Source: Octopus sinensis (taxonomy: Eukaryota). From it: DNA of 61,194 nucleotides. The position numbers and the translations under genes were made by a program. Positions 2,861 through 56,270 of this stretch are shown here, piece after piece; positions within the stretch are counted from its first letter, which is position 1; every line of letters begins with the position of its first letter. The stretch is from positions 1 through 61,194 of the forward strand of contig NW_021832394.1 in NCBI RefSeq assembly GCF_006345805.1. Direction: 5' to 3'. The notes below the pieces were generated by a model that saw only the letters and a list, made by a program, of their open reading frames with translations, did no database searches and was not told the DNA's origin.

Positions 2861-3403
2861 TTTAGTGAGAAAGCAGTGCATGCCATCAAAGTGATATTGG
2901 GGTAAAATATACGAAGCCCAGTATAACCATCATGACTACCCGTCTGATAAGGGTACACCAGGCACATGCATCACAAACATATGTGATCTCATATCAAGAT
3001 ACATAGCACATGACCTTGCAGGTGGGGCCCAGTTAGAATTTTCTTCTGGTCGAGTAACCCATCCTGCTCAAAAGGTCCCTGAATAAGGGTTGTTTAAGGA
3101 TGTTGAACGAACCACCCATGTTTCCAAAGGTGAATTATTCAAACCTCTAAGAATCCCTCTCAACACATGGCGGTGATACTTCCCCACTACTTCTGCTCGT
3201 GGTCAGAGATGCACATATCATCATCCACTAAGGGACATGCTCAACTAGTTATGGTCAAACAACTGACAAGCAAATCTGTGGTATTGAGGAGAATATTTGC
3301 TGTAGCCTATCTCTTATACCAAGAAAAAACAATGTACATGATAACACTTCCAATCAGTTAAGATCAGAAGCCATGAGAGCCACTGCCTGGAACTGCATCA
3401 GGG
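2861..3403 (-). mobile_element. Non-autonomous retro-like element E (~540 bp) in a (TAA)n array, apparently full length
   Basis: Minus strand begins CCCTGATGCAG and ends CACTGCTTTCTCACTAA(ATA)n. Five copies in the window, all next to TAA-type repeats. No ORF and no tRNA boxes seen. Confidence 0.8.
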
Positions 3404-3492: not shown

Positions 3493-3918
3493 GAGTGAGA
3501 GAGTAGTGCATGTCATCGAAATGACACTGGGGTAAAATATACGAAGCCCAGTATACCCATCATGACAACCCATCCAATAATGTTGCACCAGGTACATGCA
3601 TCACAACCATATTGATATGGGGATCTCATATCAAGACTACGCCGCTCAAACATTCCTTGAATAAGGGTTGTTTAAAGATGTTGATCGAAACACACATATT
3701 TCTAGAAGGGGATTATTCAAACCCCAAAGAATTCCTCTATGATGCTCTCCCGCTATTTTTGCTCGTGAACAGAGATGCAGATACCGTCAGCCACTAAGGG
3801 ACATATTCAACTGGTTAAAGTCAAACAACTGATAAGCAAATCAGTGGTATTGAGTAGAATATTTACTGTAGCCCATCTTTTATATCAAGACAAAACATGT
3901 ACCTGATAACATTTCCAA
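3491..3918 (-). mobile_element. Element E, second copy with an internal deletion
   Basis: Colinear with 2861-3350 but lacks the segment corresponding to about 3000-3060. Confidence 0.8.
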
Positions 3919-8563: not shown

Positions 8564-9647
8564 CGCATCGTAATTATTAAGATAAAACTTACTTGGAAAA
8601 GGATGCGTGGCGTTCGATCATATAATAATAAAAATAATATATAAATATATGCATATATACATATATGTACATAACAACATATATATGTATATATACATAT
8701 ATGTAGATATGTACATATATGTATGTATATATGCATATAATTATATATTATTTACATCATTATATGATCGAAAGGCACGCATCCTTTTCTAAGTATATAT
8801 ATACATATATATATATGCATAAACATAAATGCATATATATATGCATACATAAACACACACACATAAATCGGTATAACTATCATAAGATTCCACCCAATAA
8901 AGAATATATTCTCCTCCTAGCGAAATCTTACTCCTTCAAAGTACTCACAAATACTCGTAAACAACTATATGTTATTACTCAAGCAGACACCTCTTAAATA
9001 AAGAACTATAGAAAAAATATAGAAAAAATATAGAAAAAATAAGCAAAACAGAAAAAACAACAACAAATAAATGAAACTAAACAAAACAAATATCTGATAG
9101 GAGGGAAATGCGCGTGTCATTATATCCCTACACTCTTTCTATGACAATCAATAGGTATCGTGATTTTTCACCTCATAAGGTAGAAAGGTTGTGTCAAAAA
9201 TACAATACTTTCTGCGGCTGCTGAATATATAGCAGTCGGTCACGCGGATTTGGATATGAAAATGACTGAACTAACAAACCCACCGAAATATTACACACAC
9301 ACACGTACGCGCACACATATGTAAGTATTTAAATATGTCGATAGGTATGTATGTATGTATATATATATATATACACAGTCGAAAATTGTGAAGCATGACT
9401 GTCACCACTACTACATGAACCTGAAGATTGCATAATTTAATGCATGAAAGTACTAGTTCAATCAGAATGAACATTTAACATTCTATTAGTTTATTATATT
9501 ATATTATAGTATATTATCTTATATTATATCATTATAAGATTGTAAATAAAACGTGAAAATCAGACAAGGTTGAAATTCCTTTTATTAATATATTCTTCTA
9601 TACACAATCAGCCCCCCGTATATCTATCTATCTATCTATCTATCTAT

Positions 9648-14439: not shown

Positions 14440-14745
14440 AAAAGACCTGGAAGAAGAGGTAACCAGAATGTGGAATCTAAAAACAGAAACAATTCCTATC
14501 ATAGTAGGTGCATTAGGCATGATAAAAAAATATTCAGACAAATACATAACAAAAACACCAGGACTTACAAACACATATAACATACAGAAAATTGCACTAC
14601 TAGGCACTGCACACATCCTACGCAGAACACTTTCCATACAATAACCATCAGAGCATCACAACAAATCACAGCACATACCCAAGGCACACAGAGCTGCGCC
14701 CGGTAGTGAAGTGAAAGCACGCTATAAAAAATAAAACTACTGAAT
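14440..14745 (+). mobile_element. RLE-type LINE (Dong/R4-like), 3' fragment, subfamily 1
   Basis: KDLEEEVTRMW...IPIIVGALG...QKIALLGTAHILRRTLS*, then 3' UTR. Flanked by (TAA)n on both sides. Confidence 0.85.
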
Positions 14746-14746
14746 G

Positions 14747-14808
<62 letters not shown>

Positions 14809-15805
14809 TAATAAATGGCAAGAAAAACCTCTCTATGGCAAATACCCAAAGAGAGCGAATAATGCAGATATCGACAAAGCCCTGACCCATCAATGGCTAA
14901 TGGCCTCTGGCTTAAAATCTGAAACAGAGGGGTTTATCATAGCAGCTCAAGATCAATGCCTACCAACAAGAAACTACCAGGCCAACATATTAAAGATCAG
15001 AAGCAGTCCAACGTGTCGTGTATGCAAGCAACAAAATGAAACCATTGACCATGTGGTCTCCAAGTGCAGTCTTCTAGCGCCTACAGAGTATCTCAACAGG
15101 CACGATAGAGCTGCACAATATATTCACTGGGTAATCTGTAAAAACCTGGATTTGCCCCATGAAAAAAATTGGTGGGAACACAAACCACCCCCAGTGCTTG
15201 AAAATGACCACATCTCACTCCTCTGGAACTTCACCATTCAAACTGACAGGAAGATAGATGCAAATCGCCAGACATCATATTGAAAGACTTCAAACAAAGA
15301 ACATGCCTCCTCATTGATATGACTGTCCCAATCGATATAAACGTATCTGTCAGGACCTACCAAAAACTGAGCAAATATAAAGATCTTGAAATAGAAATCA
15401 GCAAAATGTGCAAGCTGAAGACTAAAACAATACCTGTTGTCATAGGTGCCATGGGAATGATAGCAAAAGGGGCTGATAGCTACCTAACTCAGATACCAGG
15501 AAACCCAAAAATGGCAGAAGTTCAAAAGATAGTGCTCATGGGAACTGCTCATATCCTACGCAAAATACTCTCTATGTAACCTCAAGGTTTAAAACAACCA
15601 TAATTTTCGGTTTAAAAAAAAAAAAAAAAAAAAAAAAACATCTTTTTTTTTTTAGACATTCATTAGTACAACATCCCCACCCCCCAAATATATGGCACAC
15701 TAGGCATAACAACAACATGAACTTCCAACCCTGTTGTCTCTTGAGGTCTCTGGGTGAGACTTGGAGCCAACTTGTACAAATATAAAGCAAAAGTCAAACA
15801 TAGAA
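14809..15805 (+). mobile_element. RLE-type LINE (Dong/R4-like), 3' ~1 kb, subfamily 2, frameshifted
   Basis: ETEGFIIAAQDQ, CCHC knuckle CRVC...HVVSKC, RHD, then IDMTVP...KLSKYKDL and LMGTAHILRKILS*. Flanked by (TAA)n. Confidence 0.9.
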
Positions 15806-21358: not shown

Positions 21359-21473
<115 letters not shown>

Positions 21474-21700
21474 GACCTTTTGAGCGGGATGGGTTACTCG
21501 AACTGAAGAAAATTCTAACTGGACCCCTCCTGCAAGGTCATGTGCTGTTTATCTTGATATGAGATCACCATGTCGCGCACATATGGTTGTGATGCATGCG
21601 TCTGGTGTACCCTTATCAGACGGGTGGTCATGATGGGTATACTGGGCTTCGTATATTTTACCCCAGTGTCACTTTGATGGCATGCACTGCTCTCTCACTC
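21474..21700 (+). mobile_element. Element E, 5'-truncated copy in (TAA)n
   Basis: Reverse complement of about 2861-3077; (TAA)n on both sides. Confidence 0.85.
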
Positions 21701-21725
21701 AATAATAATAATAATAATAATAATG

Positions 21726-21772
<47 letters not shown>

Positions 21773-21795
21773 TATAATAATATTAATAATAATAA

Positions 21796-23300
21796 TGAAG
21801 TTTAGACAAAGATTTTACTACCGGACGAAGGGTTGCGCCATGGGGGCACCCATGGCAGTTCATTTCGGTAATGTCTTCATGACGAAATTCGAGACACAGT
21901 TACTGAAGACATTCAAATCCCTTAATGGTCAAGAACCAATACTCTGGTATTGAAGACGTATTTTTTGTTTGGGAAGGATCACAAGATAGTTTAATGGATT
22001 TCTTGCACTTCTGTGACTGTTATGCTAGAAACTATGGCTTTAAGTCCAACATAAAATTTACGTCTAGTTTTTCAAAAACTAGTGTTGAATTTTTGGATAC
22101 AAAAATCAAGTTTTCTGGAGGCACAATAGCGACAGTTATTTTGCAAACCCACGTCATTCCACATTTATCTCCACGGCCGCACCGATCATCTTATTCGGTC
22201 AAATCCGAAATCCCAATTTTTGAGGATAAAACATATTTGTAGTGACATAGGGGACTACTGGAAACATGCAAATGCTTTTGTATATCATTATGTCAAACGT
22301 GGTTACAGTGAATCACGATTAAAGGAAATAGCAAATGAAAAGATTAGCAAAGATAGTCAAAGCTTCACGCGTAATTTTAGCAAACACAATACAATAGATG
22401 ACAGAATTCCTTTAGTGATTAACTGGCACCAACATTTCGCTGACATTTTAAAAGTTTTGCATGAAAGTTACCAGCAAGTGGCGAAAATATATGCTCGTTT
22501 CAAACAGATATTTCCTCAACCGCCTATTGTAGCCTTTAGACGAGATAAAAATATAAGAGAATTATTGACCTCTACATCTGACTCCAAGAAAACGAACATT
22601 GGAGTATCTGCACACTGTACCTTAAAGAATAGCCGCAAGAGAGGTAATCCCTGTTCATTGTGCAACAACATGAGTGAAGTGAATTCCATCAGAAATCATA
22701 ACAGAAATGTTATGATTTATACAGAAGGTGGAACGTGTAAAGATTCCCATTTAGTGTACGCTGCAGAGACGTCAGGCACAATAACAGTAGTTCGACAGAA
22801 CTTGCTAAACATTTCGTTTCAAGCGGCTTCAATTTTGAAGAAGACTTGAAAGTGCATGTTCTCAGAAAATATTCTGAATCTACTTCAATTTTACTTCCCA
22901 GAATGTATGAGAAGAAATATGTTTGCGGGTTATTAACATCACGCCCTGGAGGAATAAATAAGATGACAGGAGAATATCCTCAAATTTATGCAAAACTGTT
23001 TGATTAAATATTCTTCTTTCCCTCTATTCCTTTCCTTTTTTCTGTCGTTTTCTTTTCGCTTGTTATAAAATTGTTACTTAAAAACTGATGATGTGATTCC
23101 ATAAACATGTGGACGCTGGTTGCCCTCGTTCATACTTTACGTTTAAATTTCTATAATTTTGAATTTTTATCACTTCTTATTTTGAACTTGACAAAGACAG
23201 ACTTACTGTTGAAATATCGTTCAACTAATAAAATAACTTACAATCGAATCGCGTTCTTCGTCTTGACTGTTTACCTTTGTGAAGAGTTACGTCAATCCTT

Positions 23301-23301
<1 letters not shown>
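21796..23301 (+). mobile_element. Penelope-like element, 5'-truncated and frameshifted (RT, thumb, partial GIY-YIG region, 3' pseudo-LTR)
   Basis: GCAMGAPMAVHFGNVFM, IEDVFFVW (YxDD region), NIKFT, VEFLD, RGYS, PPIVAFRRDKNIRELL, CSLC...C...LVY, terminal PGGINKM. Flanked by (TAA)n. Confidence 0.9.
23182..23224 (+). ncRNA. Minimal type-I hammerhead ribozyme, U3-A8 variant, in the PLE 3' region
   Basis: TTGAAC TTGACAA A GACAG-ACTTA-CTGTT GAAA TA TC GTTCAA, followed by AATAAA. Confidence 0.8.
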
Positions 23302-23358
<57 letters not shown>

Positions 23359-23360
23359 TA

Positions 23361-23535
23361 ACATTGAAAAATACCTTGGGAATGAGAAACCAGTTTCGAA
23401 ATTTCCCCAAGACACCTGATGAAGCTGGAGGGTATATCAGCCGAAACGTTGTGTTAACAACAAACAAGATGATGACAAATATCCGTCAAATGTAAATAAT
23501 GTACATAATTCCTCATCTCTTAAATATAGAACTAT
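23361..23535 (+). mobile_element. Short hammerhead-bearing non-autonomous element (copy 1; copy 2 at 56110-56270)
   Basis: Two diverged copies in the window share CGAAATTTCCCCAAGACACCTGATGAAG...CCGTCAAATGTAAATAATGTA. Confidence 0.75.
23411..23455 (+). ncRNA. Minimal type-I hammerhead ribozyme, canonical C3-G8
   Basis: GACAC CTGATGA A GCTG-GAGGGTATAT-CAGC C GAAA CG TT GTGTT. Confidence 0.75.
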
Positions 23536-23570
23536 ATCTCTCTCTTTCTCTCTTTCTATATATATATTTC

Positions 23571-23835
23571 AATTCTTGGTGACGCGTTGTGTCCTTGAGC
23601 AAGACACTTTATTTCACGTTGCTACAGTCCACTCAGCTGACAAAAATGAGTTGTACATGTATTTCAAAGGGCCGGCCTTGTCACACTTTGTGTCACGCTG
23701 AACATCCCTGAGAACTACGTTAAGGTGACACATGTCTGTGGAGTGCTCAGTCACTTGCACGTTAATTTCACGAGCAAGCTGTTCCGTTCATCGTATTAGC
23801 TGGGACTCACGTCGTCGTAACCGATGGAGTGCTCC
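23571..23835 (+). mobile_element. SINE family C, 5'-truncated
   Basis: GTGTCCTTGAGCAAGACACTTTATTTCAC...GTAACCGATGGAGTG. Confidence 0.85.
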
Positions 23836-36357: not shown

Positions 36358-36573
36358 ATGGTTGGGCTACTCAACCTGAAGAAAATTCTAACTGGGTCCC
36401 ACGTGCAAGATCATGTGCTGTTTATATTGATATGACATCGCCACGTCGCACACATATGGATGCGATGCATGTGCCTGGTGTACCCTTATCAGACGGGTAG
36501 TCATGATGCGTATACTGGGATTTGTATGTTTTACCCCATTGTCACTTTGATGGTATGAACTGCTCTCTTACTC
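36358..36573 (+). mobile_element. Element E, 5'-truncated
   Basis: GAAGAAAATTCTAACTGGG...GTACCCTTATCAGACGGG...CTCTCTTACTC(AAT)n. Confidence 0.85.
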
Positions 36574-38948: not shown

Positions 38949-40239
38949 CGAGGGACGTTCAATAAGTAATGCCTCTGACCCACTTGCAGTTATTTGATCT
39001 AGCTGAAATTTTGCATGTACAATCATTTATATCTCTAAAGAGTAAGTGGCAAAGTGCAGCTCTGAATGAATTGTGGTTTCTGATTTACAGGTGTTTGAAC
39101 CGAGTCAAGTGTGAAATGGAGCCTGTTGAGTGTCGAGCAGTGATCCGGTTTTTGTATTTGAAAGGACGCACACCACGGGAGACTTTTGATGAAATGAAAG
39201 TAACTTATGGTGATGATGCCCCATCATATGACCTTGTAAAACGCTGGCATCGTGAATTCAAACATGGTCGGAACTCTATGGAAACAGCTCCCAGATCTGG
39301 TCGCCCCCTTCTGCCATTGATGAGGCATCTGTCCGTCATGTTGAGACTGCCATTTTGGAAGATCGACGCATAACTATTCGCCAAATAGCCCATGAGGTCA
39401 AGATTAGTACCGGGTCTGTGGAAACTATCATTCATGACCATTTGCATATGCAAAAGGTGTCTGCCAGATAGATTCCCAGGTTGCTCACGCCTTTCCAGAA
39501 GCAAGATCGCGTCGAGTGCTCGAGGGTGAATTTGGAGATGTGCCAAGAAGATGAGTCAAAACTTTTCAAAAGACTGATTACACAGGATGAAACCTGGGTC
39601 CATCACGATGATCCAGAGACCAAAGCCCAGTCAATGCAGTGGAAGCACCGTGACTCACCCCCTCCAAAGAAGGCAAGGGTGCAGCCCTCCGCTGGCAAGG
39701 TCATGCTCACAGTCTTCTGGGACCAGGACGGAGTAGTGATGACAGATTTCCTGGCAAAGGGTACCACAATTGCAGGAGCCTATAATGCTTCGCTTTTGAG
39801 GAAATTAAGAGAAGTTATCAAAATCAAGAGGCGGGGCAAGATCAGCAAAGACATCCTCCTCCTGCAGGACAACGCTCCGGTCCACAACTCGCTTGTCGCC
39901 AGATCAGAAGCACAGGCGTATGGCTATGAACTCCTCCCAATCCCCCCTACTTTCCTGACCTTGCACCCTCTAATTTTCACCTCTTCCCAATCATGAAGTT
40001 GTTTTTGAAAGGAAAGCGTTTCCCAGATGATGCAGCCTTGATTTCTGAAGACACGTTGAGGTTGGAGGACCAAGCTGGGTTCTTCTACAAAAACGGTCTC
40101 CAGAGCCGCATCAAACGATGGGAAAAATGCGTAACTCTGGGTGGTTCCTATGTAAAAAAAGACTAATAACTGTGCCAAGTTTCGTTGCTCTACTGCTATG
40201 GGAAGTGGGTCAGGGGCATTACTTATTGAACGCCCCTCG
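38949..40239 (+). mobile_element. Full-length mariner transposon (1291 bp, irritans-like), inactive
   Basis: 37-bp TIRs CGAGGG(A/G)CGTTCAATAAGTAATGCC(T/C)CTGACCCACTT with 2 mismatches; TA on both sides. Confidence 0.95.
39116..40166 (+). pseudogene. Mariner D,D34D transposase pseudogene
   Basis: MEPVECRAVIRFL HTH, TQDETWV, LLQDNAP, PDLAPSNF (third D changed to N). Frameshifts and a TAG in the WIPR motif. Confidence 0.92.
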
Positions 40240-42291: not shown

Positions 42292-43074
42292 CATTCAGTA
42301 GTTTTATTTTTATAACGTGCTTTCACTTCACTACCGAGCACAGCTCTGTGTGCCTTGGGTATGTGCTCTGGTTTGCTGTGATCCTCTTATGGTTACTCTA
42401 TTGAAAGTGTTTTGCGTGTGCAGTGCCCAGTAGTGCAATTTTCTGTATGTTGTATATATTTGTAAGACCTGGTGTTTTTGTTATGTAGTAGTTGTCTGAA
42501 TATTTTTTTATCATAACCTAAAGCGCCCACTATGATAGGATTTGTTTGTTTTCAGATTCCTCATTCAAGTAACCACTGTTTCCAGGTCTTTTTATTTTGA
42601 AAGTTTCTCCATTTCTTTTAGAGAAACGTTCTCATCTGCTGGTATTGATACATCAATTAGAAAGCATTTTTTTCTTCTTGATCTCTGACAACTATATCTG
42701 GCCTATTGGCCTTAATTTCTCTATATGTGTGTATTGGCATATCCCAGAGTATGATTGCTTTCTCGTTTTCTGTGACCTTTTCTGGCGTGTGCGTGTGCTT
42801 ATACCATCTGTTTTCTGTTGTTATTCCATAGTGTTGGCATAGCTTCCAGTGTATGTAGGTCCCAACACTGCCGTGTCTGTGAATATATTCCTTCTTAGCC
42901 AGGACTGGGCAGCCAGAGATAATATGATTTATTGTTTCTTGTCCATCTCCACATATTCCGCAGTTACTTATTTTTTTTTTTCATTGTATGTTTTTGGTAT
43001 TTTCTGGTGGGGAGGCTTTGGTCTTGTGTTGCAATTAAAAATCCTTCAGTCTCTGGTTTGAGTCCTTTGCTTTA

Positions 43075-46314: not shown

Positions 46315-46461
46315 ATATATATATATAAAACTGTGCTATATATATATATATATGTATAGGAGGAGTCATGTGGAATTGAGAGTCGCTGATGAAGTCACAG
46401 GATGTGTGACGAAATGTTTCAAACAAAGTACACTAAAATAAGAATAATAATAAAGCTGAAG

Positions 46462-49722: not shown

Positions 49723-50282
49723 AGAATAAAAAAAACAAAAAACATGACAACCGCATCCTCGTTCTCAAGTAAAGCCATCGCCTGAAGCACTTGAGAATGG
49801 GTTTCATTGGAGACCTGGTATGTGAGCAGTATGGGTGTGGATTATCAAACAGGCAAATGAGCAACACTGCGGGGTACAAATGTTACACATGTGATTGCCT
49901 TCAACAATAGGAGCAACTTGTCGGTCATCATGTGGCGTTTCAGCACCCCCTCCCCCGACTGATGACAGGCAAAGCTAGCCTCAGTTATGGTATGCTCTTA
50001 TGCTCCATATGATGTAATCAAGGTCAAATCTCCGCATCTGGTTTCTTTTATAACTTTTCAGTTGTGCAATTTTGAAACGGACTCCCCCACATTCCTCACA
50101 TTTTCTTCTTTTGTTTTTAACTGAAACGCTGTTAGTAACCTCAAAAAAAGGAAAAAAGAGAAAAAAAGAAAAAGGCAAAGAAGACTAATATTAATAGCAA
50201 TATTGAAAACAATGACAATAAGGGCTCGGAAATGAACTGCGAAGAAGTCTGGCATACATACATACATACATACATACATACA

Positions 50283-50313
<31 letters not shown>

Positions 50314-50351
50314 TCACATACATATATGAGTGTGTGCGTGTATATATATAT

Positions 50352-50760
50352 ACTCTCTTTTACTCTTTTACTTGTTTCAGTCATTTTGACTGTGGCCTTG
50401 CTGGAGCACCGCCTTTAGTTGAGTAAATCGACCCCAGGACTTATTCTTTGTAAGCCTAACACTTATTCTATCGGTCTCTCTTGCTGAACCGCTAGATGAC
50501 GGGGACGTAAACACATCATCATCGTTTGTCAAGCGATGTTGGGGGACAAACACAGACACACTAACATATACTTACACACACACTCACACACACATACACA
50601 CACACACACACATATATATATACGACGGGCTTCTTTCAGTTTCCGTCTACCAAATCCACTCACAAGGCTTTGGTCGGCCCGAGGCTATAGTAGAAGACAC
50701 TTGCCCAAGGTGCCACGCAGTTCGACCGAACCCGGAAGCGTGTGGCTCGTAAGCAAGCTA
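50352..50760 (-). mobile_element. SINE family A, missing about 25 bp of head
   Basis: Highly similar to 27345-27722. Confidence 0.9.
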
Positions 50761-56109: not shown

Positions 56110-56270
56110 AGGAAGAATTATGTACATTATTTACATTATTTTAGGAATGAAAACCCGGGTTCGAAATTTCCCCAAGACACCTGATGAAGGCTGGAGGGTA
56201 TATCAGCCGAAATGTTGTTTTAACAACAAACATGATTAGGACAAATATCCGTCAAATGTAAATAATGTAG
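56110..56270 (+). mobile_element. Short hammerhead-bearing element, copy 2, preceded by an inverted copy of its own 3' end
   Basis: Hammerhead at 56176-56220: GACAC CTGATGA A GGCTG...CAGCC GAAA TG TT GTTTT. AATTATGTACATTATTTACATT (about 56116-56137) is the reverse complement of the element 3' end. Confidence 0.75.

Follow-up and report, generated by a model that had tools for sequence, protein, structure and literature searches.

Does the hammerhead motif that precedes an AATAAA hexamer in a contig of Octopus sinensis (NW_021832394.1) belong to a Penelope-like element (PLE), and could this copy still act as a ribozyme? The window, that is, the whole stretch of DNA analysed here, is 61,194 nt long. 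A preliminary description had placed in it a U3-A8 minimal hammerhead with a perfect 6-bp stem I, a 5-bp stem II and predicted cleavage after 23218, at the 3' terminal region of a PLE relic. A check of the sequence located stem I, the core, the GAAA box, the UA-UC stretch and AATAAA as described, and the proposal is supported. The parts of the motif are as follows.

23182..23224 (+): minimal type-I hammerhead, from the descriptor match and the predicted fold
23182-23187 (+): 5' arm of stem I, TTGAAC, paired with 23219-23224
23188-23194 (+): core TTGACAA with the U3-A8 pair, from the sequence
23195 (+): unpaired extra A between A9 and 10.1, from the sequence and the fold
23196-23200 with 23206-23210 (+): stem II, 5 bp with a 5-nt loop, from the fold
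23211-23214 (+): GAAA box, from the sequence
23215-16 (+): TA, from the sequence
23217-18 (+): TC, in which C17 is 23218 and the predicted cut follows C23218
23214-17 (+): palindromic AUAU, from the sequence
23219-23224 (+): 3' arm of stem I, GTTCAA, with 6/6 Watson-Crick pairs
between the 3' arm of stem I and AATAAA at 23227-23232 (+): CT spacer, from the sequence

The catalytic boxes of the PLE minimal type-I hammerhead are present as the U3-A8 variant of the core, GAAA and UH, and AUAU supplies the palindromic 15.1-16.1 positions, with no or a tiny loop 3, that characterise the hammerheads of PLE pseudo-LTRs. Stem I is perfect as claimed. Stem II was likewise recovered, together with two details that had been omitted: the extra A at 23195 and the pair that closes helix II, 10.1-11.1, which is a G-U wobble rather than G-C in the predicted fold. 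By all sequence features testable here except a G-C closing pair, the motif is assigned to the PLE minimal hammerhead class.

A short motif of this kind might be a random match within AT-rich sequence. Both strands of the window were scanned with a strict descriptor (stem I of at least 6, stem II of at least 5, palindromic helix III), and the 23182-23224 site was the sole match. The same descriptor matched in 0 of 400 locally dinucleotide-shuffled windows and in 0 of 20,000 shuffles of the 293-nt 3' UTR. Relaxing the stems (at least 4 and at least 4) gave 0/400 and 1/20,000, respectively, and the loosest version with stem I (at least 3 and at least 3 bp) matched in 9/400 shuffled windows. The minimum-energy fold of the 47-mer was the hammerhead scaffold. 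Its stability (z = -2.0, 9/200 shuffles) is weak evidence taken alone, and that of 101 nt gave z = -0.06. A chance match would be consistent with such modest z-scores and with the silence of Rfam, which returned 0 matches at the gathering threshold for the entire window, the motif thus lying outside the Rfam hammerhead families, and 9 matches at E<=10 for 22900-23700, none of them to a hammerhead family. The shuffle counts argue against it, as does the location of the motif on the correct strand and in the expected place behind a PLE ORF: the hammerhead core begins 181 nt past the stop codon, on the same strand as the RT-EN ORF. The chance reading is effectively refuted.

The ORF itself is a relic. 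When homologues were mapped back onto the window, four collinear segments in different frames were obtained, from 21795 to the stop codon at 23005-07. These segments and the boundaries of the insertion are listed below.

21701..21796 (no strand): (AAT)n microsatellite, located where the element is truncated on its 5' side and the likely insertion target
21795..21950 (+): PLE relic, RT motif 4 region in the first frame, the 5'-most homology (tblastn 35-53% identity; HMM iE 2e-16)
21949..22137 (+): PLE relic, RT motifs 5-7 in the second frame, from homologue mapping
22133..22768 (+): PLE relic, thumb, linker and first half of GIY-YIG in the third frame (HMM iE 2.4e-53)
22616-22663 (+): C-x11-CxxC linker, from motif positions
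22765..23007 (+): PLE relic, C-terminal endonuclease half, from homologue mapping, with the TAA stop at 23005-23007
23008..23301 (+): U-rich 3' UTR (126 T of 293 nt), the presumed 3' pseudo-LTR, with a putative boundary given by the flanking microsatellite
23302..23361 (no strand): (TAA)n microsatellite marking the presumed 3' end, which lies 84 nt beyond the cut site and carries no poly(A) tail

A frameshift at ~21948 falls within the catalytic RT motif and breaks it, a second frameshift lies near 22135, and near 22768 a deletion with a change of frame has removed the YIG-containing stretch. No homologue aligned 5' of 21795, and the element is therefore 5'-truncated; no further PLE coding piece was found within the window, and self-BLAST of the window revealed no second copy of the element. 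The four ORFs of the relic gave nothing significant against Pfam at the curated cut-off. The 239-aa frame at 22130-22846 identified 1282 related proteins at E<=0.001, the longer of which bear RVT_1 and GIY-YIG, as does the best long homologue match; the relatives are 30-45% identical across most of the ORF. A PLE-type RT is followed by GIY-YIG, collinear across the four frames, which is the arrangement of PLEs with a C-terminal endonuclease. The claim of a PLE coding relic upstream of the hammerhead is hence confirmed by homology (tblastn, HMM and the 1282 proteins). It had further been claimed that the locus links the hammerhead directly to a PLE ORF; the motif does lie 3' of the relic, but the link had already been published (PMC4209133).

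The sole two named homologues come from bivalve molluscs. The linker reads C-x11-CxxC in the relic and in the related proteins P0006 and P0008 and C-x12 in P0007, and is missing from several other relatives. In contrast, the RT-EN linker described for the Neptune and Nematis clades is CX2-5CxxC (PMC8557442). A GTDB scan with the homologue alignment gave 40 pattern matches, 0 of which were confirmed, and one with a degenerate motif pattern gave 0; blastn of 22900-23300 against phages found no match. The genome is AT-rich and microsatellite-rich.

A box about 100 nt upstream of the hammerhead, at 23085-23110, had been put forward as a decayed second motif that might once have been its partner. 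The letters are present, with the box at 23085 and AAACATGT at 23103-23110.

23085..23111 (+): CTGATGA box with hairpin and palindrome; by fold and pairing test non-functional as a hammerhead, and probably a remnant or a chance occurrence

As a former cis partner, this box would have allowed intramolecular dimer cleavage within one pseudo-LTR. The site does match CTGATGA exactly, with a hairpin of 3-4 bp and a palindrome of 6 nt, and a motif of this grade was recovered in 60/10,000 shuffles of the 169-nt upstream UTR, 29 of them with the palindrome, using a descriptor that had been tuned post hoc. The pairing test contradicts the proposal: the box is without G12, has G at 17, forms 0 bp of its own stem I at the junction and cross-pairs by 0-1 bp with the arms of the main motif. 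Moreover, its 6-nt palindrome is mismatched to AUAU, the region folds otherwise, and loose matches of this type numbered 15 in the window where 12.6 were expected, or 12 rather than 5.9 if a palindrome was demanded, counts that include the real hammerheads. Strand exchange demands a near-identical partner. We consider a former partnership extremely unlikely, and that the box is a remnant is itself unlikely.

Two further hammerhead candidates occur in the same window. A canonical C3-G8 minimal hammerhead at 23411-23455 (+), with a 5-bp stem I, a CG palindrome and U17, belongs to a separate repeat that begins directly after (TAA)n. A second copy of that repeat lies within 56141-56269 (+), is 91% identical over 129 nt, and shows damage to stem I and a CpG change within helix III. 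The 23411-23455 hammerhead was rejected as a partner of the main motif, as stem I cross-pairs by 2 bp only at the junction and helix III is mismatched. The third candidate, at 9416-9460 (+), has a C3-G8 core, a 6-nt palindromic helix III, A17 and a U-U at the base of stem II; it sits in a short island that has no PLE coding sequence close by, and its stem I arms are nearly identical to those of the main motif. The arms of the two would cross-pair by 6 and 5 bp, but by inspection the 6-nt palindrome is incompatible with AUAU, and this candidate was rejected as well. A broad descriptor matched the window three times, all palindromic and all on the + strand, compared to 27 matches (2 palindromic) in 200 shuffled windows. 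A CTGATGA box at 46386-46420 (+), followed by a hairpin and GAAA then TGTT and with no good stem I, is possibly another decayed hammerhead.

A ~230-nt repeat at 21473-21700, which we take to be SINE-like and which is also flanked by (AAT)n, has copies near 2864-3077 (-), 3493-3636 (-) and 36360-36573 (+), with 85-88% identity between copies; our impression is that the repeats neighbouring the relic belong to octopus families. Apart from the ORFs of the relic, 145 of the 210 non-low-complexity ORFs that reach 55 aa or more were scanned with Pfam. Among them were a decayed mariner/Mos1-type transposase at 38966-39993 (+) with HTH_48 and Transposase_1, LINE fragments at 14744-15280 (+) and 42660-42980 (-) with zf-RVT matches under the curated cut-off, and a sub-cut-off Connexin match at 50139-50423 (+) (E 4.4e-5) that is possibly a hydrophobic chance match. 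No clear host gene was found among the 145 ORFs.

Could the copy at 23182-23224 cleave? Pairing A15.1 with U16.1 across 2 nt is a disallowed hairpin, leaving helix III unable to close in the monomer, and therefore the motif could act only as a double hammerhead. Neither the self-BLAST of the window nor the descriptor scan detected a second identical copy at the locus. The motif had been called intact, a word that holds at the level of sequence but not for helix III, which cannot form in the monomer, nor for a locus with no second copy. In the published model for the class, the monomer is uncleaved and dimers cleave weakly (PMC4209133); the dimer assay in that paper used a C3-G8 family. Nearest-neighbour energies (ViennaRNA) were -11.6 kcal/mol for the double hammerhead, whereas two monomers gave -17.0 and a non-catalytic dimer gave -19.6; these energies ignore Mg2+ and core contacts and are not decisive. 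The low rank of the calculated catalytic dimer agrees with low activity, though it is unreliable as a test.

A full-length parent would be expected to carry a pseudo-LTR at both ends, as published elements suggest (PMC4209133, PMC6765202). Two motifs of one transcript could then pair via the palindromic AUAU and exchange stem I strands, giving a double hammerhead that would slowly cut both sites and free a unit-length RNA. The downstream cut would remove AAUAAA, plus any poly(A) tail made from it, from the coding RNA. In the full-length element the other pseudo-LTR would serve as the partner; here it is lost. The present copy was presumably reverse-transcribed from uncleaved RNA and then inserted into a (TAA)n tract, an origin we infer because the copy appears to extend 84 nt beyond the cut site. 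If these 84 nt belong to the element, the source RNA had escaped the cut at 23218 and continued past the hexamer. A parallel exists in the Poseidon element of the anole: insertion was unimpaired by ribozyme mutants and unprocessed RNA was the main substrate, and reverse transcription, with starts at +111-118, began 85-92 nt downstream of a cut that lies at +26 (PMC11167929).

It is likely that the U3-A8 hammerhead, 181 nt past the stop of a broken, 5'-truncated PLE, was inherited as a 3' pseudo-LTR ribozyme, with a predicted cut after C23218 only when a second identical copy is available, and that it is probably idle here. A different account would have the host maintain this copy as an active ribozyme, for example within a host transcript. 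The motif is indeed unbroken next to an ORF with two frameshifts, a frame-changing deletion and a damaged catalytic motif. Nevertheless, short motifs often outlast neutral decay: the chance that all 35 core and stem positions stay unchanged is 0.34, 0.17 and 0.025 at assumed divergences of 3%, 5% and 10%, and other repeat pairs of the window are 85-91% identical. The motif may look intact because it is short and the copy moderately decayed, and selection is unneeded. Two more unbroken or nearly unbroken hammerheads sit in unrelated repeats of the window. Helix III is disallowed in the monomer, the published monomer did not cleave (PMC4209133), and no clear host exon was found among the 145 ORFs scanned, a search that short exons would escape. 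Maintenance by the host is thus highly unlikely, and the motif of this copy is probably an inert leftover.

The preliminary description had also read the AATAAA 2 nt after the fold as a poly(A) signal. The sequences that bear on this are listed below.

23227..23232 (+): AATAAA, which may be a poly(A) signal, the 3' strand of distal helix I or both, from the sequence and the fold
23177..23181 (+): TTATT, able in predicted folds to pair with 23227-23231 as distal helix I past a 2-nt bulge
23253..23282 (+): U/GU-rich tract, candidate downstream element of a poly(A) signal, 15 T of 30 nt

A poly(A) signal is plausible, given the tract that follows the hexamer, but the alternative distal pairing and a genomic copy without an A-tail leave it a candidate. 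The hexamer starts 2 nt past stem I, and a random position in the shuffled UTR had AATAAA within 10 nt in 81/10,000 cases. With the U/GU-rich tract 21-50 nt beyond it, both the hexamer and a candidate downstream element of a poly(A) signal are present in the sequence. The distal helix TTATT/AATAA appeared in the minimum-energy folds and in the 101-nt centroid and was missing from the 131-nt centroid. In Fig. S3 of PMC4209133, an AAUAAA at most 3 nt from, or overlapping, the 3' arm of stem I was counted by eye in 9 of 56 motifs from six phyla (Alatina, Adineta 1, the Cotesia bracovirus PLE, C. remanei, Lottia 2, Oikopleura, Saccoglossus 1, Xenopus 2 and Chrysemys), and a term search found polyadenylation unmentioned in the main text of that paper. 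The arrangement of hammerhead and AAUAAA is thus recurrent among the published rows and little discussed in the literature searched.

These observations would fit a coupled functional unit, in which the hexamer is the poly(A) signal of the element, partly hidden in distal helix I, and cleavage determines whether an mRNA with a tail or a unit RNA without one results. The close spacing, the downstream tract, the pairing of the hexamer with 23177-81 in the minimum-energy folds and the nine published motifs all point this way, and the Clec2 ribozyme is known to remove a poly(A) signal (PMC6765202). On the other hand, the A-rich strand may just complement the U-rich 5' flank of the published consensus. 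A distal helix of this kind arises by chance in 402/10,000 shuffles (4%), and it is absent from the larger centroid. The genomic copy, which has no A-tail, seems to run ~70 nt past the hexamer, and other hexamers, AATAAA at 22953 and ATTAAA at 23003, lie upstream. A weak hairpin at 23264-23289 that overlaps the U/GU tract was not significant (z = -1.2, 21/200 shuffles). We therefore regard a coupled unit as less likely than not; AATAAA may equally be an A-rich distal strand of helix I, an equally simple reading of the predicted fold.

The U3-A8 pair could in principle be a product of decay rather than a family trait. Here, the family core would have been the canonical C3-G8, and U3-A8 would have arisen at this site by two transitions after insertion, one of them CpG decay at positions 7-8. 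Because position 7 is C, a canonical ancestral G8 would lie in a CpG. In the repeat copies of the window, 9 of 32 CpG-context columns had changed, against 28 other substitutions in the remaining 310 (~threefold), and U3-A8 is rare among published motifs (2 of 56 rows in PMC4209133, counted by eye). This origin would require, however, a second, non-CpG transition at the exact partner base with the rest left perfect, and the UTR is without CpG depletion (o/e 1.56). Entire U3-A8 families exist (PMC4209133), and our rough estimate of the odds is ~8:1 against. A C3-G8 ancestor is very doubtful. A literature search found no work that treats hammerhead, C3U and G8A together.

Among 14 relatives of at least 900 aa, an N-terminal ExNPGP occurs in 8, including every one of the 8 of at least 1187 aa, and a DCG motif also occurs in 8 of the 14. 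Eight proteins of 1187-1461 aa (P0007, P0011, P0014, P0016, P0017, P0028, P0029 and P0117) have the N-terminal 2A-like ExNPGP, and most of them have a Ulp1/C48-like cysteine protease preceding the PLE RT. In P0016, residues 300-480 are similar to Peptidase_C48 clusters, with a feature score of 0.96 and the family assigned to 39% of the members of the top cluster, and a profile from ten such proteins gave a weak match to a solved Ulp1-like protease (E = 0.028). A tree was built from search hits only, 38 of 157, picked for coverage and length or score. In it, the relic forms a group with P0007, which has both motifs, and a short chimeric protein, at a support of 96/89, and lies within a clade of 23 rows (97/91) that contains most of the ExNPGP/DCG proteins; some members of this clade lack the motifs, possibly through truncation. 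The closest match, P0009, with 68% across the stretches that matched, is 332 aa long and joins a piece of this PLE family to cadherin domains; it is either a mis-predicted gene or an exonised PLE fragment. The 2A-like and Ulp1-like N-terminal part is absent from the window.

Ulp1 domains occur in the non-LTR elements NeSL and Utopia (PMC4640811), and 2A is known in APE-type elements. A PLE with Ulp1 or an NPGP/2A-like motif was found neither in the main text of PMC8557442 nor in the rest of the literature searched; Repbase, subscription papers or supplements may record one. The most far-reaching interpretation would be that the relic represents a Penelope lineage absent from the literature searched, with a full-length protein that starts with a 2A-like ribosome-skipping motif and a Ulp1/SENP-like protease. 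Its U3-A8 hammerhead would be coupled to a poly(A) signal concealed by distal helix I, and dimer cleavage would switch the RNA from one form to the other, either an mRNA with a tail or a unit-length template lacking one; this coupling would recur, unremarked, in about one-sixth of published PLE hammerheads. Taken as a whole, this is quite unlikely.

The motif is real and well-formed, probably inert, and represents a known ribozyme variant in a known setting. Truncated Penelope elements have left minimal hammerheads by the thousand in the genomes of invertebrates; this is one more of them, and a tidy example with good stems, an attached coding relic and a U3-A8 core. The role of PLE hammerheads is still an open question (PMC8557442, PMC11167929). 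If the coupling to AAUAAA were general, it would suggest a testable role in polyadenylation control, not in making a template for transposition. The apparent 2A-like and Ulp1-like N-terminus of the parent family may be more unusual than the hammerhead.

Cervera & de la Pena 2014 (PMC4209133) describe U3-A8 PLE minimal hammerheads, an extra base following A9, a palindrome of 2 nt and copies that stand alone at the 3' end, so that the U3-A8 variant was indeed found on a PLE here but was not new. The consensus in that paper has a palindromic 15.2-16.2, a U-rich 5' flank and an AU-rich 3' flank; in its Table S1, 5'-truncated copies commonly carry the motif at the 3' end only, and G-U at 10.1-11.1 was counted by eye in 8 of the 56 rows. 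In Schistosoma mansoni, the U3-A8 variant has ~1,300 matches, mostly solitary and attributed to truncated PLEs (PMC4209133). The S. mansoni set (families 3 and 4, the latter tied to Cercyon) and the octopus motif share the UUGANAA core and extra A, GAAA-NN-UH, the 2-nt palindrome and the absence of a helix III loop, and in both cases the motifs lie in PLE terminal repeats and are mostly solitary (PMC4209133). They differ in host and PLE lineage; the octopus motif has a longer stem I of 6 bp, a UA palindrome where theirs is CG/GC, G-U at 10.1-11.1 and AAUAAA after the fold. Among the minimal hammerheads of metazoan PLEs in Fig. S3 of PMC4209133, those of Nematostella vectensis(1) and Latimeria(2) have the same UA-UC junction, and Nematostella(1) also shares the three inner stem I pairs, AAC/GUU, whereas the cores of both rows are C3-G8.

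The Poseidon PAc element of Anolis carolinensis also carries a pLTR hammerhead, and its genomic ends lie ~85-92 nt past the cut, compared to 84 nt here (PMC11167929). In contrast to the octopus motif, PAc has a C3-G8 core and an ORF that starts inside the ribozyme, while there is no ATG in the 84 nt past the octopus cut; protein-assisted cleavage was tested for PAc (PMC11167929), and cleavage of the octopus motif is a prediction. The natural U3-A8 hammerheads of Perreault et al. 2011 (PMC3088659), which come from a general all-domain survey, have the same compensatory core pair and were reported active in vitro. Finally, the hammerhead in the 3' UTR of mammalian Clec2 cuts, as predicted here, between the stop codon and the poly(A) signal, but it is discontinuous and belongs to a host gene rather than to a retroelement repeat (PMC6765202).
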